A stretch of 64,000 nt of DNA from Prevotella sp. (GTDB lineage Bacteria; Bacteroidota; Bacteroidia; Bacteroidales; Bacteroidaceae), in NCBI GenBank assembly GCA_016281055.1, contig JAEEHW010000085.1, positions 15,203 through 79,202 of the forward strand, in the 5' to 3' direction. A program made the position numbers and the translations under genes. Under the pieces are notes generated by a model. That model searched no databases, was not told where the DNA came from, and saw nothing but the letters and a program-made list of their open reading frames with translations. The stretch's first letter is position 1. Each line of letters begins with the position of its first letter. Positions 7,027-33,800 of the stretch are shown here, one piece after another.

Positions 7027-7060
7027 AATTAGTGTAATCCGTTGTAAAAAAGAGAATACA

Positions 7061-7723: not shown

Positions 7724-7741
7724 GAAGTCAGGCAAGTGCCT

Positions 7742-7821: not shown

Positions 7822-7832
7822 TCACCAAGAAA

Positions 7833-9095: not shown

Positions 9096-9112
9096 AAAAA
9101 TCCAAAGAAAAA

Positions 9113-9574: not shown

Positions 9575-9581
9575 TTTCAGA

Positions 9582-9718
9582 AAATTCTGATAACTCAGAA
9601 TACTCAGAATACTCAGATTATTCAGATTATTCAGAATATCTCGGAATACTCGGAATGTTCTGATTACTCCGATTACTCTGATTACTCCGATTCTTCCGAT
9701 CATTCCGACAAACTCCGA
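9582..9718. repeat. 9-bp satellite, 15 tandem units (consensus wwAYTCNGA; two units are 10 bp), filling the ribH-DUF1846 spacer
   Basis: aaattctga taactcaga atactcaga atactcaga ttattcaga ttattcaga atatctcgga atactcgga atgttctga ttactccga ttactctga ttactccga ttcttccga tcattccga caaactccga. Confidence 0.9.
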
Positions 9719-9728
9719 AAATTTAGCA

Positions 9729-11488: not shown

Positions 11489-11737
11489 ATGAATGTAAAC
11501 AGCGAAATAAGAAAGAAATCGTACGTCTCGCCCGTTATCTCGTTCGACGAGATTGAGGAGGAGCAGGCGCTGCTTGCAGGCTCACGCACGGATGGCGGTG
11601 GTAGCGAGGTTGATCCAGGTAATGGAGAAAACACTGGCAACGACCCTGATCTCGGTGGCTCCAACGGCGCCAAGGGTGCTACAGGCTCGCTTGGCGGAGG
11701 CGATGAGTATGATTTCGTGTTCGAGTACGACGAGTAA
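11489..11737 (+). CDS. 82-aa acidic Gly/Asp/Asn-rich hypothetical protein, no signal peptide
   Basis: ORF track: MNVNSEIRKKSYVSPVISFDEIEEEQALLAGSRTDGGGSEVDPGNGENTGNDPDLGGSNGAKGATGSLGGGDEYDFVFEYDE. It is the first ORF after the promoter box. Whether it is coding is not proven. Confidence 0.45.
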   Translation: MNVNSEIRKKSYVSPVISFDEIEEEQALLAGSRTDGGGSEVDPGNGENTGNDPDLGGSNGAKGATGSLGGGDEYDFVFEYDE

Positions 11738-11797: not shown

Positions 11798-13030
11798 ATG
11801 ATGAGGATACTGCTTTTCCTTCTTGTATTTCTGATGCAGAGTGCTTCCTCAAAAGCCATCACCTATGAATATAGGGATGGGTTGGGGTTGATTCCATCTT
11901 GGGTGAGATGGGATATGTGCGTCGGGTATCGCGAGGATGCGAATCGTAGCAGTCGTATGATCTTGTATATGTATCAGGTTGATACGGGGAACACGGCGTT
12001 CGGCACGTTCAGCGGCGGTGGCAAGGTAATGTATGATGACCATAATTATTTTGTTTATGGTCCCATTGACAAAGCCCACGATAGGAAAGACCGCACGGCG
12101 TTGGCGGTTTCATACACGGGTCAGATGCAGATGGCTAATGCCAATCCTGACCATATATATAAGTATGACTATATGGTGGCGAAAGATACAGTGACTGCCT
12201 CGCTGGGTGACTTTACTTTGAAACACCTTGGAAGCGTGTTGAGAGTTGAGTTGCCGATGCAGAGGGATATGCGCGTCACGAGGATGGTGATGAAAACATC
12301 TGGTGACCGTTTCGCAACAAACGCCACGGTGTGCGTTGATGAAGAAACTATAACGCCAACAGCGTTTTGTGACAGCATGGAGCTGAAGATGGACAGCCTG
12401 GTGATAGGGAAGGGCGACGCACTGGTGGCATACCTGATGCTCCCTGCAACAGATTTCACGGATGATACCCTGGTAATCAAGGTTGCATCAGATGATGGGA
12501 CGATAACTTCAGCAAGAGTAAAAGGCTGCAAAGTGTCTGCAGGACTTCTATATAATATAAAGGTAGGAGAAGAAGGAGAAGAAATTGAGGGTTCGGAAAA
12601 CTCAAAAGAAACTAAAAACTCAGATCTCTCAGATAACTCAGATAACTCCGAAAATTCAGAGTCCTCCGATAATTCCGAGTATTCAGAGAACTCCGAGCAT
12701 TCTGAAAACTCCGATTACTCCCCCTTGCAGGCAAAACCCGCGGAGGCTAACCTCGACGCAGATGGTAATGAAACCTCTCCGACAGGCCTGCTGACGCCTT
12801 TGCCAATGGCAACACCGGACGATGGACAGTTCCTAACGCTGAATACCCTCATAGGAGATGTCAATGGTGACGGTGAGGTAACGATGAGTGATGCCAACAT
12901 GGTAGTAAATATCTTCCTTGGAGGAAATGTTGCAGGAGCTGACATCAACGCTGCCGATATCAATGGAGATGGAGAGATAACAATGGCTGATGCCAATGGA
13001 ATAGTAAACTTGTTCCTTAATGGACAATAG
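11798..13030 (+). CDS. secreted pilin-like (fimbrillin-family-like) protein with an NSE/NSD repeat linker and a C-terminal type I dockerin
   Basis: Signal peptide MMRILLFLLVFLMQSASS without a lipobox Cys. The body shares its layout with the two downstream lipoproteins (YDYMVAKD..FTLKHLGSVLRVEL..LVAYLMLPATDF..AGLLYNIKV). The linker is GSENSKETKNSDLSDNSDNSENSESSDNSEYSENSEHSENSDYS. The dockerin is described in the next entries. Confidence 0.7.
   Translation: MMRILLFLLVFLMQSASSKAITYEYRDGLGLIPSWVRWDMCVGYREDANRSSRMILYMYQVDTGNTAFGTFSGGGKVMYDDHNYFVYGPIDKAHDRKDRTALAVSYTGQMQMANANPDHIYKYDYMVAKDTVTASLGDFTLKHLGSVLRVELPMQRDMRVTRMVMKTSGDRFATNATVCVDEETITPTAFCDSMELKMDSLVIGKGDALVAYLMLPATDFTDDTLVIKVASDDGTITSARVKGCKVSAGLLYNIKVGEEGEEIEGSENSKETKNSDLSDNSDNSENSESSDNSEYSENSEHSENSDYSPLQAKPAEANLDADGNETSPTGLLTPLPMATPDDGQFLTLNTLIGDVNGDGEVTMSDANMVVNIFLGGNVAGADINAADINGDGEITMADANGIVNLFLNGQ
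12590..12724 (+). repeat. coding 9-bp repeat (x-Ser-Glu/Asp tripeptide units), the same unit as the intergenic satellite at 9582-9718
   Basis: aac tca gat | aac tcc gaa | aat tca gag | tcc tcc gat | aat tcc gag | tat tca gag | aac tcc gag | cat tct gaa | aac tcc gat | tac tcc. Confidence 0.85.
12854..13027 (+). other. dockerin type I module (two EF-hand-like Ca-binding segments)
   Basis: GDVNGDGEVTMSDANMVVNIFLG - gnvagadina - ADINGDGEITMADANGIVNLFLN. Both segments match the D-x-N-x-D-G-x-[IV]-x-x-x-D dockerin loop plus helix. Confidence 0.8.
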
Positions 13031-13121: not shown

Positions 13122-14378
13122 ATGAAGAATATACTGACATTTTCAATCATTGCATTTCTTGCGGCGCTGACATCTTGTTCATCAGAGGATATCCTCGGTG
13201 ACGTACAGGTGACAGAGCCGAAGGAGGGTACTGAGGCTGCCATCCCCGATGTTGTATCTGGCGATGCCTCACGAAGCGAATTGTACTATGACAATGGTAG
13301 CATGAGCTTCATGTGGAATGCTGGTGACGGTATTGCTATCTATCCTAAGTTCGTTGATGCTGATAAGCAGGGATTCTTTGGTGCAGAGTTAAGTCCGCGA
13401 ACAGACTATCTGTATGTGTTGGAAACGGCTCATGCAGAAACTAACCCTGCACTTAAGGGTTATGTGACAGGTAAGTTCGGTGAGACAGATGATGAGTCTT
13501 CAAGGTTGACGATAGCGGGAACGACTGAGTTCTATGCTTGGAGTCCGAATACCAGTACCCGTCAGTCTATAGCAACACCTGAATATGGATACTTGGAAAT
13601 GCCGGTTGATTTTACAGGTCAGAGGCAGGCAAGCAATGTTGCCATATCTTATTATCAAGAGGACAATGCTGCTTATACTGCATCGGAGAAGGCGGCATCG
13701 GGTCACCTTGGTGACTATGATTTCATGTACTCTTTGGCAGAGCAGGATCCTACCAACTTATATACCTATTTTGAGTTTAAGCATGTGCAGGGATTCGTGC
13801 GCTTCTATATGAAAGTGCCAGATCCGGATGTAGAGCAGGTGTTCGACTCTCTGTTGCTTTTCCGTAAGAACGAGGGTTTGGAACAATATAAGTTCACTAC
13901 AAAGGGAACATTTGATATGGAGGCAGAGGTCCTGACTCCTACCGAGCAGCCCTCAATGCTTAAGTTGCTCCTTGGCACCAACGGCTTCGACCTCATCGAC
14001 CATGACAGCGAAAGCCCACGCTATGGCAAGACATCCAATCTGTATCTGCGCAAGGGCAACTATATTATGATATGCTATATGGCAGTAGCACCGGTAGATC
14101 TTATGCTTGATGCCCATCCAAAACCGATTCTTTATCTCTGTAGCCATACAGGCACAGGAGATAATATGATAAAGAAATACTATAAGGCCACACTTGCAAA
14201 GAAGAAGATTGAGGCTGGAAAACTTTATCAGTGGTCTTCTGCCCTCGATGAGGAAGAACCTATCACATTCGAGGAAATTGAAGTAGAGGAATGGAAAGAA
14301 GAGGTTGGTTACACCAACACTGTTACCGACAGCACCTCTGGTGAGGATAAAGAAGGTCACGGTACGGAAAACTGGTAA
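13122..14378 (+). CDS. fimbrillin-family-like lipoprotein (type V pilin-like)
   Basis: Lipobox FLAALTSC|SSED. The body pattern DYDFMYSLAEQ..FEFKHVQGFVRFYMKV...MICYMAVAPVDL...IEAGKLYQW is typical of Bacteroidota fimbrillin/Mfa-like proteins as I recall them. Confidence 0.55.
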   Translation: MKNILTFSIIAFLAALTSCSSEDILGDVQVTEPKEGTEAAIPDVVSGDASRSELYYDNGSMSFMWNAGDGIAIYPKFVDADKQGFFGAELSPRTDYLYVLETAHAETNPALKGYVTGKFGETDDESSRLTIAGTTEFYAWSPNTSTRQSIATPEYGYLEMPVDFTGQRQASNVAISYYQEDNAAYTASEKAASGHLGDYDFMYSLAEQDPTNLYTYFEFKHVQGFVRFYMKVPDPDVEQVFDSLLLFRKNEGLEQYKFTTKGTFDMEAEVLTPTEQPSMLKLLLGTNGFDLIDHDSESPRYGKTSNLYLRKGNYIMICYMAVAPVDLMLDAHPKPILYLCSHTGTGDNMIKKYYKATLAKKKIEAGKLYQWSSALDEEEPITFEEIEVEEWKEEVGYTNTVTDSTSGEDKEGHGTENW

Positions 14379-14432: not shown

Positions 14433-15641
14433 ATGATAAAGACTAAACACATACTTATGGTGAGTGTCGCCGCCCTCATGACGGCATGTTCCAGCGACGA
14501 ACTGGCGCTGACACTTCCCGACGGTTACGATGAGATAAATTTCACCGTAGGCAATGGTACCGCTAACCTTACTCGTACAGAGGGTTACCTGCCGTATGAC
14601 TATGACCGTGACCCGCACAGCATGAGTGTATTCGGATGGTACAACCTGAGTGCGGAAAATATGGTGAAGCCAGCCAACACGATGTTCAACAATGTTGAGG
14701 TTACGGCAGGACGTGATGATGAGAGTGGTCTTGTGTCTTGGACATACGTCAACAAGAAATATTGGTTTGACTATGCTGCTTATTCGTCATTCGATTTCTT
14801 TGGTTGCATGCCTTACGATGCATCTGCATCTCTTGTATCAGGAGCAGCGGTTGGTAATGCCCAGAGCTATGAACTCTCCATGGATGTTGAGTTTGCAGAA
14901 GGTGCAGCGTTCTCACCTGTTGAAACTGCGCTTATGTGTGCTCTGCCAGAGCATAAGAGGTCTGCAGAGGGTGTCATTCCGTTCAAGATGGATCAGACGC
15001 TCACAGGTTACACTCTCGTGTTCCAGCTTGGTGAGCAGATGGATGCCTTGCGTGATTTCATTGTCAAGGAGGTAAAGGTATATGGTAACTCTTTGGCACA
15101 TAGTGGCCATGTGTCTCGCACCTATACCTATGATGGTGACGAAGGAGTATGGAGTGCCGGAAATATCACATGGACTGTAACTCAAGATGACTATACCGAT
15201 ATCCCAAGCACCACCGATGTGGTTATACCATATAAGAATAATTCAAATGATGTGGCAGACCTCGTGCCGTATTATACCGATCCTGTAGCGGAAGTTGGTA
15301 ATACACCGGCAAAGCCAGGCACCATGCGTGTTACCAACGTGCCTGTACAGTGGGGCAATGCCATATATGTGATACCTGTGGCAGGATTCAATCCTACATT
15401 CCAGGTGAAGTATGACGTTGTAGTGCAGGATGAGGAAGGTCATGACATCATTACACGTCATGATGTTGTCAGCACCATACAGTTCAACCCTGACTTCTTC
15501 AAGCGTCTTACCAAGAATGCAGAGGAGAGTCCTGTAAAGATGGGTTACACAAGACCAATCAACATAAAGATTGTGCCTGATCACCTCTACGTCCTCGCCG
15601 ATGCCGACCAGACATTCGGTTACATGCCAGTGTCAGACTGA
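14433..15641 (+). CDS. fimbrillin-family-like lipoprotein (type V pilin-like)
   Basis: Lipobox AALMTAC|SSDE followed by EINFTVGNGTANLTRTEG, a typical fimbrillin start. Later comes IPFKMDQTLTGYTLVFQLG...VKEVKVYGN. Confidence 0.55.
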   Translation: MIKTKHILMVSVAALMTACSSDELALTLPDGYDEINFTVGNGTANLTRTEGYLPYDYDRDPHSMSVFGWYNLSAENMVKPANTMFNNVEVTAGRDDESGLVSWTYVNKKYWFDYAAYSSFDFFGCMPYDASASLVSGAAVGNAQSYELSMDVEFAEGAAFSPVETALMCALPEHKRSAEGVIPFKMDQTLTGYTLVFQLGEQMDALRDFIVKEVKVYGNSLAHSGHVSRTYTYDGDEGVWSAGNITWTVTQDDYTDIPSTTDVVIPYKNNSNDVADLVPYYTDPVAEVGNTPAKPGTMRVTNVPVQWGNAIYVIPVAGFNPTFQVKYDVVVQDEEGHDIITRHDVVSTIQFNPDFFKRLTKNAEESPVKMGYTRPINIKIVPDHLYVLADADQTFGYMPVSD

Positions 15642-16234: not shown

Positions 16235-19200
16235 ATGAAGAAGAACCTTTACTTTACCAATTTTAAGACGGCTGTTGCAGCCTGTAAGGAGAGAGGGCAT
16301 GATGGTTTGAATGGTTTTCCGGGGAGTTCCGCGGAAACGATTCGTCGTTTGTGGACATCCGTGGTCCTCATGATCCTTATGATGGTTGTGAGTGGCAGTG
16401 CGTTCGCAGGAGTTCATTTTTCGCAGAATTATGAAGCTGCAGGTGCTGTTCCTGATTGGACTACTAGTGTTAGTGGTCGTTTCACTCCTATCATAGTTGA
16501 GGAAGATGGTAATCATTATCTCACTGTGGATCAAGATCAGCGTGTCAATAATGGATGCATATTGTCATCTAGTAGTCTGATAGGAAAGGTTCCTGCAGAT
16601 GTAAACGAACTCACTATGACGTTCGATTTGCGTTTGGCACCATCAAATGATCAGACACCTAATGAGTTTACGATTGCTGATGGTGGCACAGGTTTCGTCC
16701 TTAAATTGGTAAACAAAGGGGTGAATTCTACCATATGGCAAATCAATGATAGTACTACACAGACTGTCACTATGGATGTAGATAAATGGTACTCTTACAA
16801 TATTGAAATATTGGAAGGGTGCGTTTTCGTTACTGTGACAGATAAATCCTCTGGTAATGTTGTCTTGGCTCGTCAAAAGGTTAAAAACATAATTGAAAAA
16901 TTTGGCCTTGGTAATATGTCATTTGTCACTAAGCGTAACAATGCTAATATTGCTATAGACAATGTGAAGGTTAGCAGTAAAGCAGTTGTGAAACAGTGGG
17001 ATTTTACTAAGTTTTCTGAAAAAAATCTTACTTTAGATACCGATAATAAAATACAATCAGGAAATGTAGCCCGTTGGAATGGAACTAATTTTAATAGGGA
17101 TTTATATCTATGTACGGATACAGAAGCGGAGGGATTGTATTTAGATGGAGATGGACCTTGGCAAATTTTATCAAATTCGACAGGATTATATCTTTCTAAA
17201 AAAGGAGATAGACCTTTTGCTATTACCGGTCTGTCAAAAGATGATGTAATCTTGATAAAGCTATATGACCAAGCGATAACAAGTGGTGTTATTCCTAAAA
17301 TTTGGGGTGTAAATAATTCTGAATTATTATTATTAAACTCTGGGTCTATATATGCATTAATAGTGGCATCTGACGGCAATGTAGCAGTCAATCTTGAAAA
17401 ATATTCCGCAGTAAAATCAATCTCTGTCCTCCGTGAGGATAAGCCTGTATTCGTTGATTTCTCCAATGGAGAAAACACAGGGGTGGCTGGCACACTTCCT
17501 GAGGGGATGGAAGTGCAAAAGGGTTTGTCATTCCTTGTACCGGTAAATACATCTATGTATAAGAGTGGTTATACACTTGCAGGATGGGATAATGGAACAG
17601 ATACCATAGCTTGTGGAGGAGAGTCTTCTGCATTGGTTGCAACAACCTATGTTTCTGTGTTTAAACAAAACGAGGTAGTTCGTACAGATTCCAAAAATCC
17701 TGTCAGCGCAAGTTTCACTGATGTTAAGTGGACAGAACCTGGTACGCAGGATTATTATGTAACACAAACAGCATTCAACGGAGAAACGCAGGATGTCGGT
17801 GCAATGGTGGATGGTAAGACTATTACACTGTTAGACATAATTCCAGGTACCAAGATTACGTTCCCAGCTGGAACGGTGGGTGATTATTCTGCCACAGATG
17901 TTACAGTAGCGGAAAATACCTGGACCTACAATGGTTCTGCCACTTCGCTTGAAATTACATATAGTGGTTCGGCGGCATCAACATCTTTAATAGTCACTTT
18001 CCCGCTTACGCAAAAGCCGGTTATCAGAACGGATATTCGTGATGTGTATGCAGCAAACCTGAATGCGGAATTACCAATCACTGTTGGTGCTATTCAGGCA
18101 GAAACCTATCAGTGGTATACTAATAGTGTATGCAGTACTGAGGGTGGAACGATTATTTCCGGAGCAAACTCCAGTACATATAATGCACCGACTACTACAA
18201 AGGGTAATGCATATTATTATTGTATGGTAGGTAATTCGGCTGGTAATGTAATTTCAAATGTTGCCCGTGTTCGTGTCGATGATTATGTGTCGTTTGACTT
18301 TACAGCGATGTCTGAAGATGATATGAACTACACCACAGATAGTATCAAGGGTTACTCTGGTGTAGTACAGACGATGAAAGATAGTATTGAGTGGGATTGT
18401 ATGCCTATCATTTCGCCATATCACATGACAGGTTATTTTGGCGTCATGACCACTGAAGTCAGCCTTCAGACGGGTAAAGGTTTCAGTAATAACAATGTTC
18501 GTGGTGACCGCACGTTGATAATGTATGGTCTCAAACAGGGTGATGTTGTTGTAATCAAGGGTAAGAGCCTGACTGGCGGACAGATTGTACAGAATGAGAA
18601 GAATGCAGACTATGGTCGTGCCAGTGTTGATAGTTTGGTAAACGCCAATGGTACGGATGTGGAGATACTCGTTACCATGAAAACAGATGGTGACTTGGCA
18701 TACCTGCTGAGACGTCAGAATATCCAGGAGATACATTCTGTGATGATGCCGAACAAGTATCGTCCTACGGTGACGACTGACCTTGATGGCGAAACACATA
18801 CCCTTGCACGTGGTGAAACACAGACTTTGACGGTAGCAGCCACTGCTGGCGACAGCAATGCGCTGACCTATCAGTGGTATCGTAGTGATGCCAATACAAT
18901 TAAGGGTGGATTGGATGTCAACTCGTTTGGCAGTCAGGCTATTGAAGGAGCGACTTCTGCTTCATATACTACAGAAGCAAACCAGTCGTACTACTATTTC
19001 TGTGTAGTATATAACAGTGTGACAGGTGCTGCAGCAGTGACACCGCACAACACTCGTATACAATGCAAGCCACAGGTTACATACGAATGTACTGACCCAG
19101 ACGTAACAGGCGTCTTGCCTCCAACAGAAATTGTTGAGATTGGTGGCCAGCATACTGTGGAACAACATAACCAGTTGTTGCATAAGGAAGGTTACACTCT

Positions 19201-22200
19201 TACAGAGTGGACTGCAGAGAAATTGACAGATGACAGTGTTTGGACATATAATTTTGGTGAGTCATATTATATCGTCAACGACACGAAGATAACACCTGTA
19301 TTCACAAAGAATGAACAGACTCTTAAAAATATAATCAAGAATGTCGAACAACAATGGCAGTTTGGCACCACAAATGGTGCTCCTGCTGTTGCATGGACGG
19401 ATAGTGAGGAGCATCCTTTCGTTGAGCAATGCGTTGTTTCTGGTGAAACTCAGGATGGTGCTATATTTGTGACTTCTACAGGTTTTGATAATTCTACTGC
19501 TGCAGGTGAATATGTTGCAGTGGCAGCAGGAACCACGATTAAAATTCCGGTTAAGTATGGTACTACTGTGACGCTCTATGCAAAGGAGGGCGAGACACCT
19601 TCTGCAACATTCATGGCCAGAGACCTTAACAGAGCGGTTGCTTTGACAGGTGATGCCAACGTTTTGACATATCAATACTATGGTGGCGACAGTATAGCTA
19701 CGCTGACACTTTCTGCTGGTAATTATGAGAAACTGCATTTGAAGCATATACCGTCAGGTATGCCTGTAATTCAGGCTAATTTGCTTGATGACTATTATGC
19801 AGAAACTGGCAAGGAGTATACCCTTACAGTGGATGCTTCTGATTTGTGTCGTTATCAGTGGTATAAGAATACAACGAAGTCAAACACTGGCGGTACTCCT
19901 ATTACTGGAGCTACAACAAAGTCGTTGACAGTCAGCAGGAATACCGATGGCTCGGAGTATTATTATATGACAGTGACCAATGACCATGGTACGGTTGCTA
20001 CGAACTGTGCTCAGGTGAACTTCCAAACTTATGTTACCTATGATTTCACCGCATGGGATTGGACCGATGTAGAGACTTCTTATTTTGCAAAAGAAGATTA
20101 TACGATGATTCGTCTGCCAGGTGGTGCTATAATTCAGGCATTTAACTATCCATACGGTCTTCGTGGTATGATAGGTTGTTATGCTGCTACTTTGGTACCG
20201 AACGAAGGTAAAGGTGGTCTCTATAATGGTGGCGGTGGTGGCCGTGAGCTTGCCATTCCACACATGAAGAAAGGTCAGCATCTTACGATAACAGGTGATG
20301 TTGACTGCTTCAAGGAGTGTGCCTTCCTTTATAAGGGTTTGCATAACAAGAATAATCATATGGCAGAGGAAGCTGGTGATACAATTCCTGGTGCTGCAAC
20401 CTATACTTATGAGAAGAAAGACGATAATACTCGTGTAGAAATAGATGTATTGACAGATGGTGCAGTAGTATTCTATTTCAACCCACGTTATCATACCATA
20501 TACACAATTAGACGTCCGAGTATCAACACTCCTGTCATTAAGAAAAATCTTGACAAGGAATATGTAGTTGAGAAGAACGAGGAGGTGACACTTACTGTTC
20601 AGGCAGAGCTTTCTGCTCCAATTGTAGGTGATAGTCTGACGTATCAGTGGTTTGAAAATACGACGAACAGCAATAAGGGCGGTACAAAGATAGAAGGCGC
20701 TACGGATCCTTCTTACACTATTGCTAAAGTAAATGCTAATAAATTCTATTATTGTCTCATATCTAATTCTGCAACGGATGCTACAGTTGCTACCATACCA
20801 GCAGCTGTGGGATTCTATGTGACAGTAAAATATGTAAATAATGATGTAGTAGCAACGGGTGAATGTCCAAAGGATCAAAGAGTACAAGGTGGTCTCTCTA
20901 TTGTAATGCCTGTCAACCAGACATTGTACAAGGAAGGTTACACTCTTACTGGATGGACAGATGGTACAACGGCTACTAATATTGGAGAAGAATACACTCC
21001 AGCAAATGATGTGACACTGTATCCTGTATTTGTAGAAAACAATGCAGATGCAGCCTTGACTGCACGTCCTGAGGCTATGACAACGCGTTGGGTGTTCAGT
21101 ACTGTCAACGGTTCTGCTGAATATAATAATAATGTATCAGCAAATGTCAATCAGGAGACTATTAACAACTATACCATTGACCTTGGTGTTACAATGACAA
21201 AGGGTGACAACCAGCAGCATGCAGAGTACAATGCAAGTGGTTGGATGGCAGCAAATGGTGCCGACTTCACCATTCCTGTTGTCAGGAATACTAAGATATA
21301 TGTAGATGTATATAGTACTGCCACGGGAATCACCATTAATGGTAATGCACTGGCATACAGTGCGGCTAACGGCCAGACTGGTAATGTGGAGTATGTATAT
21401 ACCTACACTGGTGCTGCCGGCACTATAACGCTCAATGTGGGTAACAACTACATTAAGCAGATAATTGCAGAGTATCCTGCACCAGAGATACTCAAGGCAG
21501 ACCATGCAGAGTATGACGTAACTATTACTTCTGACAAGGTAAGCCGCAAGTCTGCCGTCATCACTCTGACGGGTCGCAACCTCGTGGCAGGCCAGGAGGT
21601 TAGTGTAGAAAAAGTAAGCAACGGTTCCGACATTACTGTCAGTCCAGAAACATTCACTGTGGCTTCTGACGGTACTGTGAACCAGCAGATTCTTGTGACA
21701 TACAGCCAGACAACTGTTCAGGCTGACGGCGTCGCAACATTGAGGTTCTTCTACAGCAATGACGTTAAGCCGGAAGTTAAGGTGAACTATGGACGTACTG
21801 TAGCATTTGCAGGTAACACAACAGTTACTGCGGTTACAGACAAGACCGTATGGGATTGGAGTCTTGCTGACAACGACATCGTTCCAGTGCAGGATTCTTA
21901 TATGTCCTTCAGCGACGTTACGCTTGGAGAGAACGTAGAATGGCCGGCTGGCGTAAATGCTGCGAACCTCGCAGGTTCTGGACGTTACTTCTCGCATAAC
22001 ACTGTGAAGAGTTTCGAAGGTACAGAATTGTATTTCGAAACCACTCGCAAGGGTACTGTAGAGGTAGAATTCTCAGCTGCTGGTAATGGTAATGTATCAC
22101 TTGCCGTCAACGGAGAGAACACTACATACAGCAGCAGTGGAACTACTAAGGTGGTAACCGGTAAGATACAGGTACCTGCTGGTGGCGTGTTGTTGCAGGG

Positions 22201-25200
22201 ACGTGAGCAGGGCATCAACTCTGGTGAGAAGATGATGCGTGTATATAAGATTACATTCATACCTGATGCAGAAACCCCGATAATAACGCTTGACAAGTCA
22301 ACATCATCGTTCACACTCTCTACTACAGATATGAGTCTTCCTGACGATGACCCAGACAAGGAAACTATATACTACACTACGGATGGTACAAAACCAACGA
22401 GAGAAAGTTATGTATATAATGGCACACCTGTGTCTTTGGCAACTAATGTGACTATTCACGCTATTGCCATGGCAAAAGCCAAGAACAACTCTGATATGGC
22501 AGAACTCGTGACTGACATGACGACCTACAAGCTCAATGTGAACTTGTATCCGAGTGATGAGGAAGGACGTATAGAGATTTCTCCAGTATCAGAGGACGGC
22601 ACATACACCGAGAATGCCACAGTAACCGTGCGCGGCTATGCCAAGAGTGGATATGGTCTGCTTGGTTGGACAACGTCACGTGCGAATATCGGTACGCAGA
22701 CATATTGCGGCACCGGTTCCTCAATGGAAGTGACAATCAACAGTACGGCAAATGACTATTGGGCTGTATTCTCTACTGGTCCGCAGGGAACTGTAAACTA
22801 TGATTTCACTGGTGCTGTATTCTATACAGTATCAGGTGAGAACATGATAGACTATCAGGCAAGACTTGATTACGAGGATGATCCAAGTAAAACATTGGAA
22901 GAGTATAGAGCAGAATGGGCTGAGACCCTTGCTGATGCATATGAGCAAATAGAGGGTTATGACACATTTAAGTCACCTATAACCTCTACATCAATCTCTG
23001 TTCCTTCAAACTATCCATTGCATACAATGGATGGTCTTGATGGTGGTACGTTCACATTGCAGTATTGGCAGGATGCAGAGGAGAACAGGTATGACCTTGG
23101 TACGAATACGCTCTTCAAGCCAAACCAGACATCTGTTACGCTTTATCCTGTATTCAAACAGAATGAGGATACGAACTTCATGGAAGCTCGTAACTCTGGC
23201 TTCAATGTGACATGGGATTTCCGTAAGGCATACGGTGCACATCCAATGACATTGCCTTCAGGAGTGAGTGGAAGATACTACTCTACCCACGCAACGATGG
23301 ATTATTACGCTCGTGGTTCATTGCAGAAGGACAAGACAGTGGACTTGGCAATAAAGATCAATACAGAAGGTGTGGAGCAAACAGATGATGCATTCACCAA
23401 CGAGGATCTTGACGAGTGGGCAACACTCAAGCAGGGAACCAAGGTAACCATACCGTCAAGCTATGGTGCTAAGATTATCGTGGCTACATACGCCAAGATG
23501 AATGCTGATGACGGTGGTACTATGATTAACGGTAAGCACCCTGACAATATCCATGACGAGAATGTGCCTAAGACTTCTGACGGTGCATACCTCTATACAT
23601 GGACGATGGGATCCGATGATCAGGAGGTTGACCTCGTGATTGGCAATGACTATTCGTACTATAAGTATATCAATGCTGTGTTCAAGGATGCTGAGAAGGT
23701 ATATCTCAAGTATTATACAAATAATGATGAGGATGGTACAGTTACAGCTAAACTTGATGAGAACGAAGACTATGTTGCTGAGTTGACGAATTTGGGTTAC
23801 GCTTATCCAAAGGGTAGTAATGTGACACTTACTGCAACTCGAAACATTTACCATAGGTTGCTCTACTGGCTTGATGACAAGGGAGCCAAGATTTATCCTG
23901 ATGGTACGTATGAGTTGGCAAATGGCAATACAGGTACTATTAGTTCCGGAAAGGTTATCAATGGCATAACTTATAAGGGAGTCACAAATGAGACTGACAT
24001 GAAATATACTGTTAGTTTCGAGATGAATAAATTCTACGAGTTACAGGCTGTGTTTGGTGACATGACCACATACTATGTTAACTTTAGTGTTGGCGACGGT
24101 GATGGATTGGCATTGCCTCTGCAGCACATAGAGCATGGTCGTCAGTTGATTATGCCTGCATGCAACTACAACCTCTATCGTGATGGCTATACATTGAAGT
24201 ATTATGTAGAGTCTGGTCATGAGGATGGTCAGCATTATGAGTTCGGACGTTCATACAATATAGATCGTGATATGCGACTCAAGCCTGTGTTTGAGAAGAA
24301 TACAAAGTCTATTGATGATATTTCCGACGTGAATGGTGTGACTGCAACATGGGACATGAGTAAGATGGACTTTGACTTTAGCAATGCACGTGGTCACATC
24401 GTTGCTCAGTTGCCGATAGATGAAAACAACACCATCGACATGAGATGTTATGTTGAAGCTAAGAATGCAAGTTATTTTGCATACACCAATGAGGGTATTG
24501 GAGAGTTCTCTCAGGGTGCATTCCTTAAGGTGACAACAACTAAGAATAGTACAGTATCTGTTGTTGCTGCTACTGGTATGCCTTTCGAAGCCAAGCAAAT
24601 TAAAATTGGTGGTAATGAGACTGCTGCAGGTGCGACGGTAAGCTATGGTGACAATGAGAATGAAGTAAATGTGACAAGAGATTCTACCAAGATTGAGTTT
24701 GCGAAGGATTCAAGAATCAGTAGTTTCAGTGTTACATTCAGAAAAGTATCGAGTGACCTTGCATTAAAGTCTGTTACTATTGGTGGCGTTGCTCTCTCTG
24801 CCGAGGAACTGCTGGCATTGAAGAATACTCTGAACCATTCATACAGTTGTGAAGCAAGCACGGTTTATGCTGCTGATGGTGTGATGCCAGAAGTAACGGC
24901 TACAGCTAATGAAGAAGGTGGTGAGACAGCTGTGACGCAGGCAACTGTTGAAAATAATACAGCTGTTGTGCTTCTCAAGAAGGGTGGAGTGACAATCCAG
25001 ACCTATAACATTAACTTCACGCTGACAGGCAAGACCGCTCCAGTGGTTGACACCTTGAAGGTGAACGGCATTGTAGCAGAAAATGGTTCTGTAAGTACAG
25101 CACAGGGTGTCAATGGCGTGATTACATTGGTATTTGACCACGCTATGAAGACAAAAGACGTAGAGTCAGGTGCAGACGCTTTGAACCAAACACTTGACTG

Positions 25201-27841: not shown

Positions 27842-30800
27842 ATGTATTCAATAGGCAAATTGTTAAGAGTAAAAGGATTAGAAGAGAAGTATTTTTGTGT
27901 TTCAACGAAAGGGCGTGCGTATAGTATGCTCTTGTTGTCGTTGTATCTTGTTTTTGACTGTTTGGTAGCCTCAGCACAGGTTGTTCAGCCTGTTTCTCCT
28001 ATGTATGATTTCAGGAGCTGGAGCGCAACCACAATCAGTAATCTTCAGGCTGTGGCGTTGGCAAACGATGATGCGAACATTACGTCAGACACTCCGTGGT
28101 CAACATCGGAAAGTGCTACGCCAGGTGTGACATCAGAAACAAACGACGGGCATGGTTTTTATAATCATGCTGTAGTGACAGATGCGGCTCTTGCGGCTAA
28201 TGGCACGGCAGTAACTGAGGTGGCAGGACTGACGGTGAATGCTCCTTCACATGGTATTGGCATTATTAATGACATTGCTTCCACATCTCTTGGTGATTAT
28301 GCTAATAGTAGTTATTTGTGGTTGATGAATAAAACTACTTATGTTGTAATTCCAAATGTGCTATGTGGTGCAACAATAACTGTGGGCGTGGAGAGCCATA
28401 ATCCCAGTAAGGGACGTGGTGTAGAAGCATTTTACAAGGATGCCAATGGTGAATGGCAGTCAATAGGGAAATACACGAGTAAAGTATTTGCGAATAAAAC
28501 GTTTGACATACCTGTCGTACCTGGACTTACTTCAACGGAGGTGAAGTTGCAGGCCACGGACGGTATGCACCTTTATTATATTGATGCCCAGATAAACGGC
28601 ATGAAAGTGCTGACAAATTCTCTGAACCTGACAACAGGTGACACCCGTACCCTTGTTGACGGTACAGACTATGAGAACCGCAGTGGAGCAGCCATAACAT
28701 TCAGTACTGGTAACGTGGATGTTGCGACTGTTGATGCCAACGGTGTCATCACTGCTGTCGGAGTGGGAGAGACAACGATAACCCTCAGTCAGCCTGCCTC
28801 AGGTGACTACGCAGCCTCTACCCAGACCATAGCAGTATCGGTAATCAGTACCAATGTGAACCCTACGTTCACTACAAACCTGAATGCAACATATAGTGTG
28901 CTGCAGGGACGTACCGTCTGCATGAAGGTGGATATGATAGACGGTGACACCTATCAGTGGTACACCTGTACTGACATAGATGGTGAGACGGGTAAGACAG
29001 CCATCGAAAACGCAACATCCAATACATACAATATACCAGATGAGTGGCCAAACGGCGTGTACTATGTATATTGTCTTGCCACCAACAGCGAGAACGGCAA
29101 CTATACAAGGTCGAATGTCGCTACGGTTACGGTGTCGCCAATGACACATACCTTTGACTTTACGTCATTATCGGCGCAGACGCTGGCTAATATGGCAGCA
29201 GATAATGTGAACTGGACACCGTATGAGAAAGGAACCCAGACAGCAGGCGCCAATGATGACATGGGTTATTATACTGCAAATGCCATGACAGACTTCAGCC
29301 TGTTGTCGGCAAATGGGGAGAACCTGAGTGAGACATATCCTCTGTTGTTTGCCGCCAAGGGTAAGAGCCTTGCATTCGGTTTTATGTATGACATGCCGAC
29401 TGCTGCTATCAGTGGCGCAACACAGTATTACAACGGTTCAGGCATGTTATGGCTGACGTCTGGAGGAAATTCTTCCATTGTCATTCCAAACGTAAAGTGT
29501 GGTTCCATATTGAAGATTGGTCTGGAGAGTCATAAGAACTCAGACGGCCGTGGTGTGACGTTGTATTATGGTTCTAACAACAACAATACCTGGACCAAGG
29601 GAGATGCATACAAGCCGATGCTGTTTACAGAATATGAAATCACCGTTCCGGGAACTGATGAAGTTACGGATCTGAAACTGGAAGCCACCAGTGGTACCCA
29701 CATCTATTACCTTGATGTGGATATGCAGGGATTCAGGCTCCTCAGCGATACCAAGTTGATGGAACAGGGTGAGGAATATACGCTTGTGGAAAATACAGAC
29801 TATGCCAAGTTAGGCAGTGATGCAGTTGTGAAGGCTATCTCCTCAAGTGACGAAACCGTTGCCACTGTTGACGAAAACGGTAAGATTACAGCCGTTGGCA
29901 TTGGTACGGCAGTCATTAGCGTAAAGCAGGAGAAGGAAGGTGTGTATAGCGAGACTATACTCGAGCTTACGCTCAACGTAAAGAAACTTTATACAGTAAC
30001 ATACGACAAGGGAAGCGACAGTGCAGTGAAAGGCCAGGCACTTGGCGCAGTACGTTATGAAGAGAATGCCGAGATAAAACTGCCATCGCCAAACCGTCTT
30101 ATGTATAAGGACGGCTTCACCATGACAGGCTGGAGCGATGGACAGAATACATACGTCTTTGCTGATGACTATACAGTGACGCACAATGTAAATATGGTGC
30201 CGGTATTCACTGCCAACACCACAGGCAAGACATTGTCGGCACTCGCTAATGCTGAGACAGTGACATGGCAGTTCGGCCGTACCAACGGTGCACCATCAAT
30301 GGATTGGAATGCAGCTTCGGCACAGCCAGGTTACCTTGTTGCACAATGCAATGTGAATGGAGAGACACAGGATGTAACGCTGAAAATCAATACCCAGGCA
30401 GAAGGCGCAGGATTTACAAATGCAGAACGCGCAGACAAGGCCGATGCACAGGTAGGCGATCACACGGTGTTCACCATCCCTGCTGCAGAGCACATGCAGA
30501 TAACAATCAACAACGTCAGCGGTGCTGCACCGGCAGCGACCATCTCTGCAACAGGCTTGGAAGCAACAGAGATGACGTGGAATTCATCTGCCAAGACTCT
30601 TACATATACATACGACGGCAATGCTTCGGAAGTAATCATTGACGTTGCTGCTGTTGAATTCCTCGATGGCATTACGGTGAAGTATCCCCGTCCGTCAGAC
30701 TTCGCTATTGTGGAGAATGCCGGAACGCTTGACATGACAGAGAGTGAGAAGCATACACTGACAATAGATGCAGACTATGTCACATCGTCTGACGGTGCTA

Positions 30801-33800
30801 TGACCTATACGTCGAGCAATGATGAAGTGGCAACGGTTACTGCTTCTGGTGAGATAGTTGCCAGAGGTGCAGGTACGGCAGTCATCACTGTCAAGCAGGC
30901 CGCTACCAGCGACTGCTGCAAGGGTGAGATAAACTTTACCGTGAACGTGACCGCAACAACGCAGAATGTAGTGATTACAAATAACCTTCCTGCAACAGCA
31001 GAGGGATATATCAAGAGTACCAACATATTCAGCATTGCGGCAGACAATGCCTCACACTATCAGTGGTATGTATGCACCAATGCCAACAAGAGCGGTTCAA
31101 CAGCCATAGCAGGTGCTACCGAACCAGAATACAACTTCCGTCCGGCAACCGTTGGCGTACATTACATATATTGTGTTGCCAGCAACTCTAAGAACAGTGT
31201 AGCATCTGTTGTCTGCAAGGTTACGGCAAACCGTAAGTTGCAGTGGACCTTTGCACAGACTGCAGAAGAGGTTGCGGCTATTCAGACAGCTATAGATGGT
31301 GGCAGCGACTATTGGGGAACATCCTCAAATGGCCGTTATGTGACGAATCACATATACACAGGTGAAGAGGTGATGATTGATGAAAGTACACCACTCCCAA
31401 TCATGGAAGGACTGCTTGTCACTGGATCATCTTCAAACCAGTTGCTCGTTGGTTCGCCGACCAATACGAACTACAACCGTCTGCAGTTGAATGCAGAATA
31501 CACGATAACCATTCCAGGCTGTAAGGGTGGTGATGAAATCAATATCGTCTGTGAGCAGGCATCCAACAAGACCTCTGTTACCAGAGAGCTCCATGTTTCT
31601 AATGCATACTGCGCTGACGGACTCGGCGACAATCACGACTACATACAGAATACCGAGCATCAGTCAACGTTCAAGTTCGTCATGCAGCGTGACGGTGACT
31701 GTAATATCACTGCTGAGAACTATGCAATACACTCCATCAGTATCATAGACGAGAACTACGTCAAGAAACGTTATGTGTATAGTGTGGTAGCAGTGGATTC
31801 GCTCAGTGGCGACACACTTGACTATGTGCTGCCTGTCACCACGGCATGGGAGGGTGACGTGGTCAGCGGTGTGGCTTACAGCTACTGGAAGCGCACAGCC
31901 GACAACCGTCTTGTTCAGCGTTCATCACAGAACAAGAACTTCCACATGAACTATGAGGTGAACCAGGACACCACATTCGTGATACGCTACAAAAACCTTG
32001 GCATAGACAAGGTGGTATATCTCTCCGAGGCAGAGAATATCAGTGGCGCCAAGCCTTGTGCCGGTTCTACAGTCGAGGCTCGTGCCTCTAATGCCGGTGC
32101 AGCATACTGCGATGCAGCCAGAGGCATAAAACTCACTACACTGTCACCCGGTCGCTATGCCATCAGGGTGGGAATACTCGATGCTAAGAAAGGCGGTGAG
32201 AATAAGCTGGCACTGTTGGCCGACAAGGACAGTATCAAGTTTGTCACCCCGGCAACCTCATCCACCAATCAGTTCTGCGAACTTGCAGACACCATTACTG
32301 TTGATGGCTTCACAGACATCATCTGGCCTAAGGGCGGTGACGATGACCTTGGATTCGATATCATAGCCATCTATGACGTCTCTCTGCCAAAGGCAGACAA
32401 GCCTGTTATCGAACTTGACAATGAAACAGCTACCATGACCATCACCACCGGTGACGACGAGGACGATGTGTACTATACCATCGACGGTACCACGCCAAGC
32501 AGCACCAATGGTACATATTATGATGGAACGCCAGTGCATCTGCCAACCAACTGTACCATCCGTGCGGTGGCTCTGCACAGTCAGAAGAAGCCATCAGACA
32601 TTGCTGACAAGATAACAGAGTTCGTTACATATAAGGTAAATGTTACGCCGTGGCCACGCACATTTGGTTTTGTTCAGGTTACTCCACAGTCAAGCAACAA
32701 TACCTACACCGTTGGCACAGAGGTTACTGCGCGTGCCGTTGCCAAGGCGGGCTATGGATTCAAGGGATGGTGTGCAACTACTGACGGTTCTATTGAGGAT
32801 GGTATGGAAGACCAGAAGCATACCTTTACCATGACTGCAGAGGATGTTGTGCTATATGCACAGTTTGCCGAGGGCGTGAAAGGAACCGTGCACTACGACC
32901 TGTCTGCTGCCAAGTGGTACACGTCGGAAGGCGAAGAAGCAGCACCACAGACAATAAATGGCGCATCCACATTCCCGACAGAGATAGTATCAACGTCAGT
33001 GATAGTTCCTTCAAACTATTCACTGTATGTTCCAGACTATACCCTGGCGTATTGGGAGGATTCCGAGAATAGGAAATATGAGTGTGGAGTAAACAAACTC
33101 TTCACAAATGACTTCAAAGAAGTGACATTGCACCCGGTATATCAGAATAATGCTGAAGCGGACATTCTTAGCGTCCGTACTACCCCAGTCGAGATAACAT
33201 GGGATTTCCGTACAGCTTATGGTGCACAGCCCGTCACTATGGAGAAGGGCACAGGCGAGGAGCGTTACTATACCACTCACGCCACGGTGTCAGGTCAGAC
33301 TGCTGCCGAGCAGATTGTCGATGTTCCTGTTGTGATAGCCGTAGGCACAGAAGAGGGTAGCTTCACCAACGAAGACATGGACACATGGTCATATATGACA
33401 CCAGGTACAAAGGTGATTGTACCGTCGGGTGCAGGTGCTAGGTTCACTCTCGCAACCTATGCACGCATCAGTGATACAGAATCAGGTACGAGAATCAACG
33501 GCAAACTGCCAGACAATATATATTCAGAGGAACTTGTGAAGAATGCTGATGGACATTATCTCTATACATGGCTTGTTGATGAGGAGACCCCGACAGCACA
33601 GCTCATTATCGGAGCAGACGACTATGCTTACTATGCATACCTCAAGGCAGAACTGAAGGCTGCAGCCTTAAAGACGTTGAACGTCACTTCAGAGAACAGT
33701 GCCAAGGGTACGGTGAAGATTGTCACTACCGGCGACGTAAAGGTGAGCGGCGGTCATGCTTTCACTAACGGAACGTATGTTACCGTTGCTGCCGCACGCA

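Follow-up and report, generated by a model that had tools for sequence, protein, structure and literature searches.

The stretch of DNA analysed here, 64 kb in length and referred to below as the window, carries an adhesin/pilus-like operon in which a small ORF is followed by the gene of a pilin-like protein (protein A), the genes of two lipoproteins (LP1 and LP2) and then one or more genes of giant repeat proteins (Table 1), an order conserved in the related loci L002, L004, L006, L019 and L020. Protein A is the 410-aa product of the ORF at 11798-13030 (+), whose frame opens just 7 codons 5' of the start and offers no alternative start. The product of the small ORF has an N-terminal KKxYxxPxxSFxExxxExxxLAG[ST] motif, a Gly/Asp-rich middle and an acidic C-terminus, and gave no match in Pfam or NCBIfam; its orthologues lie directly upstream of a protein A-family gene in L002 (67% identity), L004 (42%) and L020, and in L006 the same position is taken by a 60-aa ORF whose translation is without the motif. 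Orthologues of LP1 follow protein A in L002, L004, L006, L019, L020 and L021, and those of LP2 were found in L002, L004, L019 (E 1.5e-77) and L020 (1.8e-50). Giants orthologous to G1 are present in L002 (60% identity) and L004 (47%), and the L019 gene after LP2 resembles the N-terminus of G4.

Table 1. Features of the operon and of protein A in the window, with the basis of each assignment.
Feature	Position	Strand	Basis or detail
Small conserved ORF, 82 aa, opening the operon	11489..11737	+	orthologues upstream of protein A gene
Signal peptide of protein A (aa 1-20, MMRILLFLLVFLMQSASSKA), type I, without Cys	11798..11857	+	sequence; cleavage read by eye
Predicted two-domain type V pilin-fold body of protein A (aa 21-257)	11858..12568	+	AF2, Foldseek, hhalign
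Disordered linker of protein A, acidic and Ser/Asn-rich (aa 258-328)	12569..12781	+	pLDDT about 50
Beta-strand segment of protein A (aa 329-348, TGLLTPLPMATPDDGQFLTL)	12782..12841	+	strands 329-332 and 346-348 in model
Type I-like dockerin of protein A (aa 353-410), near-identical F-hand segments DVNGDGEVTMSDANMVVNIFL and DINGDGEITMADANGIVNLFL	12854..13027	+	Pfam, PDB, fold
LP1, pilin-like lipoprotein	13122..14378	+	lipobox LTSC, pro-segment, invariant R51-S52, C-terminal PITFEEIEVEEW...GTENW
LP2, conserved lipoprotein	14433..15641	+	lipobox MTAC, strand EINFTV, invariant T47-R48, C-terminal IKIVPDHLYVLADADQT
G1, 3769 aa, repetitive Ig/Fn3-associated surface protein	16235..27544	+	Pfam; 44-aa tail 27410-27541
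G2, 3208 aa, Big_2, pectinesterase-like beta-helix and InlB-type repeats	27842..37468	+	Pfam; tail 37331-37465
G3, 3806 aa, Big_2, Listeria-Bacteroides repeats and pectinesterase-like beta-helix	37796..49216	+	Pfam; tail 49073-49213
G4, more than 4750 aa, running past the window end	49735..64000	+	open frame 49666-63999; start MKRTDRILTTFKRFF...

The export signal of protein A had been described in a first-pass annotation of this DNA as a plain signal peptide without a lipobox, and MMRILLFLLVFLMQSASSKA indeed contains no Cys; its signal-peptidase cleavage site was assigned by eye. The same kind of type I signal peptide is found throughout the short subfamily of protein A, and the long relatives have a lipobox. 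The body begins at a Y-x-Y...G..(F)SW motif, which is the position where processed pilins start. Behind the body, the linker (D+E 31%, S+N 37%) is encoded in part by 9/18/27-nt tandem repeats, with TRF arrays at 12617-12714, and differs in length among near-identical alleles, the members of the cluster being 409-421 aa long. The beta-strand segment after it was modelled with AlphaFold pLDDT values of 97 (block 331-340) and 92 (341-350), and aa 329-348 align with a 'P...A.DF..D' motif that precedes the C-terminal module across the subfamily.

The AlphaFold model gives protein A a body of two domains with the type V pilin fold. This model, for which a 68-sequence alignment was used, reached pLDDT 87.6 and pTM 0.81 with the body mostly above 90, compared to pLDDT 56.9 from a 7-sequence alignment. 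The best 17 Foldseek matches of protein A in the PDB all belong to the Bacteroidales type V pilin superfamily (E 4e-9 to 1.4e-3), the accessory/tip pilins Mfa3 and Mfa4 being among them. Protein A itself gives no match to Pfam Mfa_like_1 (PF13149); P0002, 54% identical to it over the body, scores 43.3 bits against a threshold of 27, and the model is above threshold in 34 of the 68 family members. The maturation rules of type V pilins describe obligate lipoproteins processed by an Arg-protease (PMC8512630). All but one of 55 lipoprotein relatives show the corresponding layout (54/55), namely the Cys, an 'ISITGKDF' strand and then an R/K 9-24 aa before a conserved Trp. This Trp is at median position 35 in the short subfamily versus 65 in the lipoprotein relatives, and in the former it lies 13-15 aa past the signal-peptidase site, where the relatives have 'TR' followed by S/T. 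Protein A is without the lipobox, the entire pilin pro-segment and the Arg site, and its site for signal peptidase I corresponds in position to the one at which Arg-dependent maturation takes place in the lipoprotein relatives. Because neither a lipid anchor nor a pro-segment is present, a canonical pilin role for protein A is unlikely, which supports the earlier view that it is not an ordinary polymerising pilin.

The two lipoproteins differ in their relation to this body. LP1 is clearly paralogous to it, the two profiles aligning over 230 columns with an hhalign probability of 97.3% (E 1.8e-11). LP2, which ends in the peptide INIKIVPDHLYVLAD, is pilin-like only at its N-terminus, where it shows a short strand and the invariant T47-R48 besides the lipobox; past the signal peptide, BLASTP and hhalign detected no similarity to protein A or LP1, and a profile search of the PDB gave no match. 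LP2 was accordingly rejected as a relative of protein A and LP1, and the proposal that the body resembles both downstream lipoproteins holds for LP1 only.

The C-terminal module of protein A is a dockerin, as had been called from the sequence; the translation given for 12854-13027 was exact, and the segment forms the C-terminus of ORF 11798-13030. Pfam Dockerin_1 (PF00404) matches residues 353-402 with E 1.4e-11 and 44.8 bits, well over the gathering cutoff of 22.9, and the model has a type I dockerin fold. The alternative of a generic EF-hand or thrombospondin-type repeat does not hold, the EF-hand and FG-GAP models (13.2 vs 25.4 bits) and the thrombospondin models falling far under their cutoffs, with Dockerin_1 well over its own. 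It has two duplicated segments of about 22 residues, and in each the 12-residue loop shows D/N/D...D at positions 1, 3, 5 and 12 (D354/N356/D358/D365 and D387/N389/D391/D398), residues that are invariant in 7 homologues, ahead of a helix, modelled at 363-375 and 396-409. Foldseek superposed the module on 6kge, 6kgf, 3ul4 and 2ccl with TM 0.77-0.86, RMSD 1.3-2.0 A and identity of up to 40%, and its PDB sequence matches are CaDoc0917 (1.8e-7), Cthe_0918 Doc, CelS and Xyn10B. Ankyrin/DARPin entries that also appeared in the PDB sequence search were rejected, their matches stemming from the 'GADINA.D' linker alone, with no full-length stretch. Its identity to dockerins that unrelated LRR, GH5 and cohesin proteins carry (65-70%) equals that to the dockerins of its own family (65-72%); by sequence, then, the dockerin shows that it is a member of a pool common to LRR proteins and GH5 enzymes, and this equal likeness to own-family and unrelated-protein dockerins suggests a shared scaffold, not a private partner. 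Presumably it binds Ca2+ and a cohesin.

The family was found by an exhaustive HMMER scan; a word-indexed homologue search with the body profile gave almost no matches, and a profile search of genome contigs with the same profile returned the long lipoprotein subfamily alone. Among 73 representatives of the short subfamily, clustered at 50% identity from the best 150 matches and therefore a lower bound, 40 carry a dockerin at the end and 33 a tail of about 45 aa; the nearest dockerin-type/tail-type pair is 51% identical. Parsimony required 15 Fitch changes between the two endings (13-20 in bootstrap trees, against an average of 24 for shuffled labels), a count that rests on a rough NJ tree with deep branches among representatives clustered at 50% identity. 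The last 45-60 residues of the subfamily are an exchangeable cassette, dockerin or tail, that was swapped about 13-20 times. The earlier description, in which the dockerin takes the place of a free pilin C-terminus, is right in that a dockerin stands at the end; within the subfamily, the element replaced is the tail, which is also found on the giants and on many secreted Bacteroidota enzymes.

This tail, with the motif YxLxGxR...KGxIYIxNGKK, is at the end of all three complete giants (G1, at 47.0 bits with the tail profile, G2 and G3) as well as of the tail-type subfamily members. A search of the PDB with the tail profile brought up three secreted glycosidases (4kca, 2.2e-11; 7jvi, 2.1e-5; 8bbl, 0.018), a search with the single tail sequence of one giant gave no match, and the tail is not discussed in the papers on 7JVI and 4KCA. 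The tail resembles the T9SS type A CTD (TIGR04183/Por_Secre_tail) in standing at the extreme C-terminus of secreted proteins with type I signal peptides and in recalling the last CTD strands, with a Y-x-L-x-G-x-R strand, a G-x-[IY]-[IY]-I strand and a Lys-rich end. T9SS components are also present in related genomes (L024), where the T9SS plug gene adjoins a dockerin/Mfa-like gene; the plug gene was seen there only, and not in the DNA of the host analysed here. It differs from the CTD in being about half the length and in being missed by the curated models: TIGR04183, other NCBIfam models and Pfam gave no match in the C-termini of the giants, in 68 family members or in 24 isolated tails, so that identification of the tail with the curated T9SS CTD was not borne out. 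In our view the tail is a probable signal for export and attachment of the T9SS type; this role rests on analogy because the NCBIfam and Pfam models do not recognise the tail, and export through it is putative.

What might the dockerin bind? The first-pass annotation had suggested, as speculation, that a cohesin-like beta-sandwich somewhere within the giants next to protein A could be the partner. No Pfam Cohesin match was found in the four giants, both lipoproteins or the small ORFs of the window; an HMM of 5 Bacteroidota cohesin modules, run against six frames of the window and of 21 related loci, reached a best E of 0.58, and a 2-module cohesin HMM gave noise only in six-frame translations of the window and related loci. 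In loci of the tail type the small ORF, LP1 and LP2 are all retained, as is, in L019, a large gene after them, so that the dockerin does not co-vary with those operon partners that allow a comparison. The proposed partner in the giants was thus not recovered by these searches, although the giants may hold a cohesin-like fold too divergent for sequence methods. Cohesins are nevertheless present in related bacteria (P0022, P0325 and L022). P0022 combines a Pfam-supported cohesin and a dockerin of the protein A type in one protein. The metagenome locus L022 encodes pA425, in which cohesin-like modules and a dockerin are joined to the same tail as that of the giants, together with a two-cohesin adaptor and an LRR-dockerin protein; the cohesin-like modules of pA425 are weakly supported (BLASTP E 8e-5 for the first and 0.01 for the second, no match in Pfam), and the L022 dockerins are of a subtype different from that of protein A.

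We propose, as the most likely explanation and one for which we see an even chance, that the dockerin offers protein A another means of attachment to the surface, by docking to a scaffold encoded elsewhere and not to the neighbouring giants. Protein A would be exported by Sec, non-lipidated and produced in an already 'matured' form, lacking the lipid anchor and the groove-filling pro-segment because signal peptidase I cuts at the position of the Arg-protease. Its dockerin would then bind, with Ca2+, a cohesin-bearing scaffold from elsewhere in the genome, which itself could carry the tail as pA425 does, and for tail-type protein A export and attachment would be direct. Here the function of the tail, the surface location of protein A and a donor-strand interaction of protein A with LP1 or LP2 are presumed. 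Sec export by itself brings a protein of a diderm bacterium to the periplasm only, and for the dockerin-type protein A no route across the outer membrane is evident; the cohesin-bearing P0022, P0325 and pB600 likewise have type I signal peptides only.

A second possibility, unlikely in our estimate yet compatible with the alternative attachment just described, is that protein A works as an adaptor at the tip of a pilus. Let us suppose that its groove, open because the pro-segment is absent, takes up a donor strand from the C-terminus of LP1 or LP2, with the direction of strand donation as given in PMC8512630; protein A would then cap a short type V pilus, and its dockerin or tail would recruit, for example, cohesin-bearing LRR adhesins. 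The coincidence of the signal-peptidase site with the Arg maturation site of the relatives, the retention in LP1 and LP2 of the lipobox, pro-segment, invariant Arg and conserved C-termini, and the accessory/tip pilins among the fold matches all speak for such an arrangement. On the other hand, a non-lipidated protein A again has no evident path to the surface, the confidently modelled strands at aa 329-348 may fill the groove in cis, and the pilin fold of LP2 is putative and polymerisation hypothetical.

We find it distinctly improbable that protein A plugs through its dockerin into a cohesin-like beta-sandwich of a neighbouring giant, or into LP2, forming a complex private to the operon. In its favour, all loci of sufficient length have protein A strictly together with LP1, LP2 and a giant, uncharacterised beta-rich modules abound in the giants, of which Pfam covers only a small part, and divergent cohesins do escape sequence methods, as Pfam missed the BLASTP-supported cohesins of L022. 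Against this stand the Pfam and 5-module HMM searches described above, the generic character of the dockerin, and the tail-type loci, in which the same LP1 and LP2 are of similar lengths, so that no module tracks the dockerin.

One may go further and imagine the cohesin-dockerin pair wired into a T9SS-type display, with the dockerin as a trans-acting substitute for a sorting tail, and, in addition, a pre-matured protein A capturing a strand of LP1 or LP2; we regard this combination as very improbable. Dockerin proteins with Sec signals (protein A, BspA-type LRR adhesins, GH5) would dock in the periplasm to tail-bearing cohesin scaffolds and be carried out or displayed together with them, and the open groove of protein A would take the LP1 or LP2 donor strand, making the protease step unneeded. 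If the dockerin did act in trans for the tail, the repeated exchange of the two at the same position would be explained.

Spacer and ligand-binding roles have been proposed for many non-cellulosomal dockerins. The least probable account, in our judgement a poor prospect, is of an orphan dockerin that binds no cohesin and acts as a Ca2+-stabilised spacer or ligand-binding module, or is a neutral, recently shuffled cassette: dockerins are far more numerous than cohesins in rumen Bacteroidetes (8.8% of dockerins versus 1.7% of cohesins; PMC6487960), and a word-indexed search with the P0022 (Prevotella) cohesin gave one relative only and a metagenome scan with a cohesin alignment a single locus, but the residues where solved type I complexes have their cohesin contacts (TM[AS]DAN..VN.FL) hardly vary, in either segment, across many host proteins, which indicates selection for a common partner, P0022 pairs its cohesin with the same dockerin type, and the dockerin is retained in at least 40 representative lineages.

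It is helpful to set the proposed surface attachment beside known systems. The dockerin shares with clostridial type I dockerins (PF00404; 6KGE/6KGF, C. acetobutylicum Doc0917; 3UL4, C. thermocellum Cthe_0918 Doc; 2CCL, Xyn10B Doc) the duplicated F-hand Ca2+ loops, the three-helix fold, a strong internal symmetry compatible with dual binding, and the location at the end of a secreted protein past a flexible linker. It differs in its host, a diderm, Prevotella-like Bacteroidota, in its carrier, a predicted pilin-fold protein and not an enzyme, and at the recognition positions, which are Met-Ser and Met-Ala, then DAN..VN.FL, in protein A and Ser-Thr...K-R in the clostridial modules. Closer in phylum and habitat, with type I-like dockerins as well, are the dockerin proteins of rumen Prevotella/Bacteroides; dockerin modules of Bacteroidetes have been reported from rumen metagenomes (Bensoussan et al. 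2017, PMC6487960), and the accessible part of that paper mentions no pilin-fold carrier, operon context, C-terminal module exchange or Bacteroidota scaffold.

With type V pilins (FimA/Mfa1; Mfa3 5NF4, Mfa4 5DHM, BACOVA_04980 3UFI, BF1861 3SY6), protein A has in common the two-domain beta-sandwich and the motifs G..FSW, YxGQxQ..N and AYDxM, and its operon of pilin-like lipoproteins plus a very large secreted protein is reminiscent of mfa3-mfa4-mfa5, in which Mfa5 is a T9SS cargo (PMC8512630). Unlike those pilins, it is led by a type I signal peptide and is without the pro-segment and the Arg site, and where they end in free donor strands it ends in a linker and a dockerin or, elsewhere in the subfamily, the tail. 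Our literature search met no paper that joins type V pili with a dockerin. The locus departs both from the usual description of Bacteroidota as being without cellulosomal parts (e.g. PMC5831590) and from that of type V pilins as obligate lipoproteins, and it shows a sizeable clade of pilin-fold proteins without lipid or pro-segment (at least 73 representatives at 50% identity). How dockerin proteins reach and remain on a diderm surface, and the identity of the short tail, which surveys of T9SS cargo based on TIGR04183 would miss, become testable questions. The findings suggest that Prevotella-like bacteria of the rumen and hindgut build complexes at their surface by non-covalent contacts, maybe with adhesins and fibre-degrading enzymes, and such complexes, if real, would bear on models of gut fibre attachment. 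Parts of a cellulosome-like system were also seen, piecemeal, on other contigs (L022, L023).

The first-pass annotation placed a type I dockerin at 12854-13027, and this is borne out: the segment encodes, in exact translation, GDVNGDGEVTMSDANMVVNIFLGGNVAGADINAADINGDGEITMADANGIVNLFLNGQ, the C-terminal part of the 410-aa product of ORF 11798-13030 (protein A), and residues 353-402 match the Pfam Dockerin_1 model at 44.8 bits against a cutoff of 22.9 (E 1.4e-11). Both Ca2+ loops carry D/N/D...D at positions 1, 3, 5 and 12, invariant across 7 homologues. The nearest solved relatives by sequence are type I dockerins, CaDoc0917 (1.8e-7) followed by the Cthe_0918 dockerin, CelS and Xyn10B, and the modelled domain superposes on solved type I dockerins with TM 0.77-0.86 and RMSD 1.3-2.0 Å. 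The dockerin is genuine and well above chance level. Its two segments are identical at 16 of 21 positions, counted by hand, and dual-binding type I dockerins likewise have two near-identical segments. The generic EF-hand reading, which the same annotation had raised as a possibility, and an FG-GAP identity are rejected, since both Pfam models score far under their cutoffs. The dockerin of protein A shares 65-72% identity with its counterparts within the family and 65-70% with dockerins of LRR proteins, a GH5 enzyme and the cohesin-bearing protein P0022, and TM[AS]DAN..VN.FL is nearly invariant among all of these. Such similarity across proteins implies what would be one cohesin specificity common to several host proteins, rather than a partner private to the operon.

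The same position in the short relatives of protein A is occupied by either of two modules. Searching exhaustively with a HMMER profile of the body gave 1,542 representatives at E up to 0.001. Of the best 150, 67 are long relatives (400 aa or more), most of which have a canonical lipobox and none of which has a dockerin; the other 83 are short (under 400 aa), and their signal peptides are of type I. Among the 73 classifiable short representatives from these best 150, 40 end in a dockerin and 33 in a tail of ~45 aa (consensus xTxI...YxLxGxR...KGxIYIxNGKKxxx), the latter called by regular expression in 33 of the 44 short members with no dockerin match. A conserved 'P...A.DF..D' segment precedes dockerin and tail alike; in the AlphaFold model of protein A it is residues 329-348, confident strands following a disordered acidic linker. 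On a rough NJ tree of the bodies of 50%-identity representatives the two endings are interleaved, with 15 Fitch changes (13-20 over 25 bootstrap trees), where shuffled labels need 24 on average, and the closest opposite-type pair reaches 51% identity, matching the closest same-type pairs at that clustering level. The ending is thus a cassette that can be exchanged, and this speaks for comparable jobs of the two modules. The small ORF and the two lipoproteins LP1 and LP2 of the operon are retained in tail-type loci, and three of the downstream giant proteins, G1, G2 and G3, end in the same tail, TDVQGV...[IV][FY]DLSGKxV...GQIYI[IV]NGEK.

Curated T9SS sorting-domain models including TIGR04183, and Pfam, do not recognise this tail. 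In a PDB search, a profile of 24 tails finds its matches at the very C-terminal ends of three secreted glycosidases from Bacteroidota (see table), so that we regard the tail as an element that secreted proteins in general can carry at the C-terminus and not as a pilin feature; the paper on 7JVI does not discuss it. The last strands of the T9SS CTD resemble it (strand, G-x-Y and Lys-rich motifs), the tail having about half the length of that domain, and by this analogy it is probably an export and attachment signal. Surveys of T9SS cargo that use TIGR04183 (PMC5831590 is an example) would overlook tail proteins, given that neither this model nor Pfam sees the tail.

The N-terminus sets the short subfamily further apart. 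The signal peptide of protein A, MMRILLFLLVFLMQSASSKA, is Cys-free and of type I, as the first-pass annotation read it in describing a plain signal peptide without lipobox. In 54 of 55 long relatives, a lipidated Cys is followed by ~20 aa, a strand (e.g. ISITGKDF), 'TR|S/T', ~14 aa and a conserved Trp. Type V pilins mature at an Arg (Arg46 in FimA, Arg49 in Mfa1; PMC8512630), and the Cys-to-'TR|S/T' stretch corresponds to their pro-segment with its Arg maturation site; LP1 (R51-S52) and LP2 (T47-R48) retain this canonical signature. The Trp has a median position of 35 in the short subfamily versus 65 in the long relatives, and the short subfamily's signal-peptidase site, read by eye in protein A, lies 13-15 aa ahead of it, so that these proteins would come out of Sec already bearing the N-terminus which in ordinary pilins is produced by an Arg-protease, once they have been lipidated and exported to the surface. 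Both the lipid anchor and the groove-filling strand are missing from the short subfamily. Since type V pilins are by definition lipoproteins maturing through Arg-specific cleavage (PMC8512630), and protein A has their fold but neither lipobox nor pro-segment, we call it a pilin-fold protein rather than a type V pilin.

Pfam's Mfa_like_1 does not match protein A itself; it does match 34 of 68 subfamily members, among the homologues P0002 (body 54% identical) at 43.3 bits against 27 and P0003 at 30.6 bits. The AlphaFold model, poor with 7 sequences, reached pLDDT 87.6 and pTM 0.81 with 68, and all 17 top PDB fold matches are Bacteroidales pilin-superfamily structures, including BACOVA_04980 (E 4e-9), BF1861, BF1858, BACUNI_00621, PG_0181 and P. 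gingivalis Mfa4 and Mfa3. The body is accordingly modelled as a type V pilin fold. The claimed likeness of this body to two downstream fimbrillin-like proteins holds for one: LP1 is a paralogue (hhalign 97.3%, E 1.8e-11, 230 columns), whereas similarity of LP2 is not detectable by sequence comparison. The acidic, Ser/Asn-rich linker contains imperfect 9/18/27-nt tandem repeats; near-identical public alleles encode 409, 410 and 421 aa, one with an additional VGEEGEE repeat, which suggests repeat slippage.

Gene order in the window is an 82-aa small ORF, protein A, LP1, LP2 and giants of 3769, 3208, 3806 and >4750 aa. The order through LP2 recurs in two other loci (L002, L004), where protein A is only 31-54% identical, and in the more distant L020, and partially in L006, L019 and L021; a large gene follows LP2 in L002, L004 and L019, the loci of sufficient length. 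LP2 is the best-conserved member (E 1.5e-77 in L019). This layout resembles mfa3-mfa4-mfa5, where Mfa5 is a large T9SS-dependent protein built into the type V fimbria (PMC8512630). Housekeeping genes (OmpA-family protein, ribD, ribE-like, ribBA, ribH, DUF1846 protein) lie ahead of the operon, whose start is apparently near 11489. The contig is metagenomic and Prevotella-like; housekeeping proteins of the neighbourhood cluster with 'Prevotella sp.' MAG proteins.

The small ORF product (67-82 aa in family-A loci), without Pfam or NCBIfam match or signal peptide, carries KKxYxxPxxxFxExxxExxxL.G[ST], then a Gly/Asp-rich part and an acidic end; it occurs in short-subfamily operons and some long lipoprotein loci at 42-67% identity. 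A 96-aa ORF between LP2 and G1 has no family match, and neither L002 nor L004 has an equivalent there. Orthologues in the window, L019 and L020 share the C-terminal ends P-I-x-F-x-x-[IV]-x-V-x-E-W...G-T-E-[GN]-W (LP1) and I-K-I-[KQ]-I-V-P-x-x-L-Y-V-L-A-D-x-D (LP2), candidate pilin donor strands. The four tandem giant genes span about 47 kb, mostly without Pfam assignment; G1-G3 have many internally repeated modules in common, and towards their C-termini G2 and G3 each have a pectinesterase-like beta-helix (PF01095, 41.6 and 39.8 bits).

Positions of features, in window coordinates unless another record is named
Feature	Position	Strand	Remark
Upstream housekeeping genes	4579-11192		
Small ORF	11489-11737	+	directly upstream of pilin-fold gene
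Small ORF counterpart	L002 531-776		
Small ORF counterpart	L004 259-483		
Small ORF counterpart	L020 2090-2293		
Small ORF counterpart	L007 9270-9692		
Small ORF counterpart	L013 9515-9706		
Linker repeats	12617-12714		
LP1 C-terminal end	14250-14378		
LP2 C-terminal end	15540-15641		
96-aa ORF	15712-16002	+	between LP2 and G1; annotated gene in NCBI record L001
Giant genes	16235-64000		
Tail of G1	27410-27541		
Tail of G2	37331-37465		
Tail of G3	49073-49213		
Tail in PDB	4kca_A 641-682		rumen-metagenome GH43 arabinanase, E 2.2e-11
Tail in PDB	7jvi_A 816-842		capybara-gut CapGH10/CBM89 protein, E 2.1e-5
Tail in PDB	8bbl_A 851-884		beta-N-acetylhexosaminidase, E 0.018
Cohesin-dockerin cluster	L022 1-4692		JGI Ga0326513_10022069; three adjacent genes
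P0022 neighbourhood	L023 2400-6937		
Reverse-order gene	L024 8001-9305		

On function, all of which is inferred, we give about even chances to the dockerin being an alternative to the tail for keeping protein A on the cell surface, where it would bind a cohesin scaffold encoded outside the operon. Two Prevotella-type proteins, P0022 and P0325, have an N-terminal cohesin; P0022 combines it (28.0 bits against 24.1) with Big_2, LRR_5 and a dockerin about 70-71% identical to that of protein A (local alignment/BLASTP). A metagenome scan with the alignment of these two cohesins led to the L022 cluster, presumably from Bacteroidota. It encodes an LRR_5 protein ending in a dockerin segment, a 600-aa protein, pB600 (cohesin, two MBG, Big_2, cohesin, dockerin; cohesins at E 1.7e-10 and 5e-13 versus P0022), and a 425-aa protein, pA425, whose dockerin (43.3 bits) comes after one cohesin-like module (8e-5) and before a second, weaker one. 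pA425 also ends in the tail, which suggests that cohesin scaffolds can bear the tail themselves. Pfam's Cohesin model detects none of the L022 cohesin modules. The gene for P0022 adjoins one for a 928-aa LRR_5 and dockerin protein amid housekeeping genes (EF-G, TrmD, LigA), so that cohesin and dockerin genes of these bacteria can lie far from any pilus-like operon.

Compatible with this surface-retention reading, protein A might be a tip adaptor whose groove, free of a pro-segment, receives a donor strand from LP1 or LP2, a possibility we hold only tentatively. That a cohesin is concealed in the giants, as the first-pass annotation supposed, is conceivable at the fold level but unlikely: Pfam Cohesin matches no locus protein of the window, a 5-module HMM of the cohesins above finds nothing in the six-frame window plus 21 loci (about 200,000 residues, best E 0.58), and comparison of dockerin-type with tail-type loci lends it no support either. 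Outer-membrane passage is problematic for every version; dockerin-type protein A and the cohesin proteins P0022, P0325 and pB600 have type I signal peptides only. Docking in the periplasm on tail-bearing scaffolds, followed by co-export, seems to us quite improbable. Least likely is an orphan dockerin with a non-cohesin role, since the positions contacting cohesin in solved complexes are conserved.

Dockerins in rumen Prevotella and Bacteroides are known from metagenomes (PMC6487960), and Bacteroidetes genomes are commonly said to be without them (PMC5831590). Our literature search found no paper with both type V pili and dockerins. The parts are already known; what is new is how they are combined, together with the pre-matured N-terminus and the repeated exchange of dockerin and tail.

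A second architecture, signal peptide, dockerin and then Mfa_like_1, occurs in P0055 and P0132. These, P0045 and a gene in L024 have a type I signal peptide, an N-terminal dockerin and Mfa_like_1 (80.8 bits), and the pilin-like C-terminus TPTVDEW stays free. The L024 gene is solitary among housekeeping genes, with a T9SS_plug_1st gene (PF17116) ~1 kb away.
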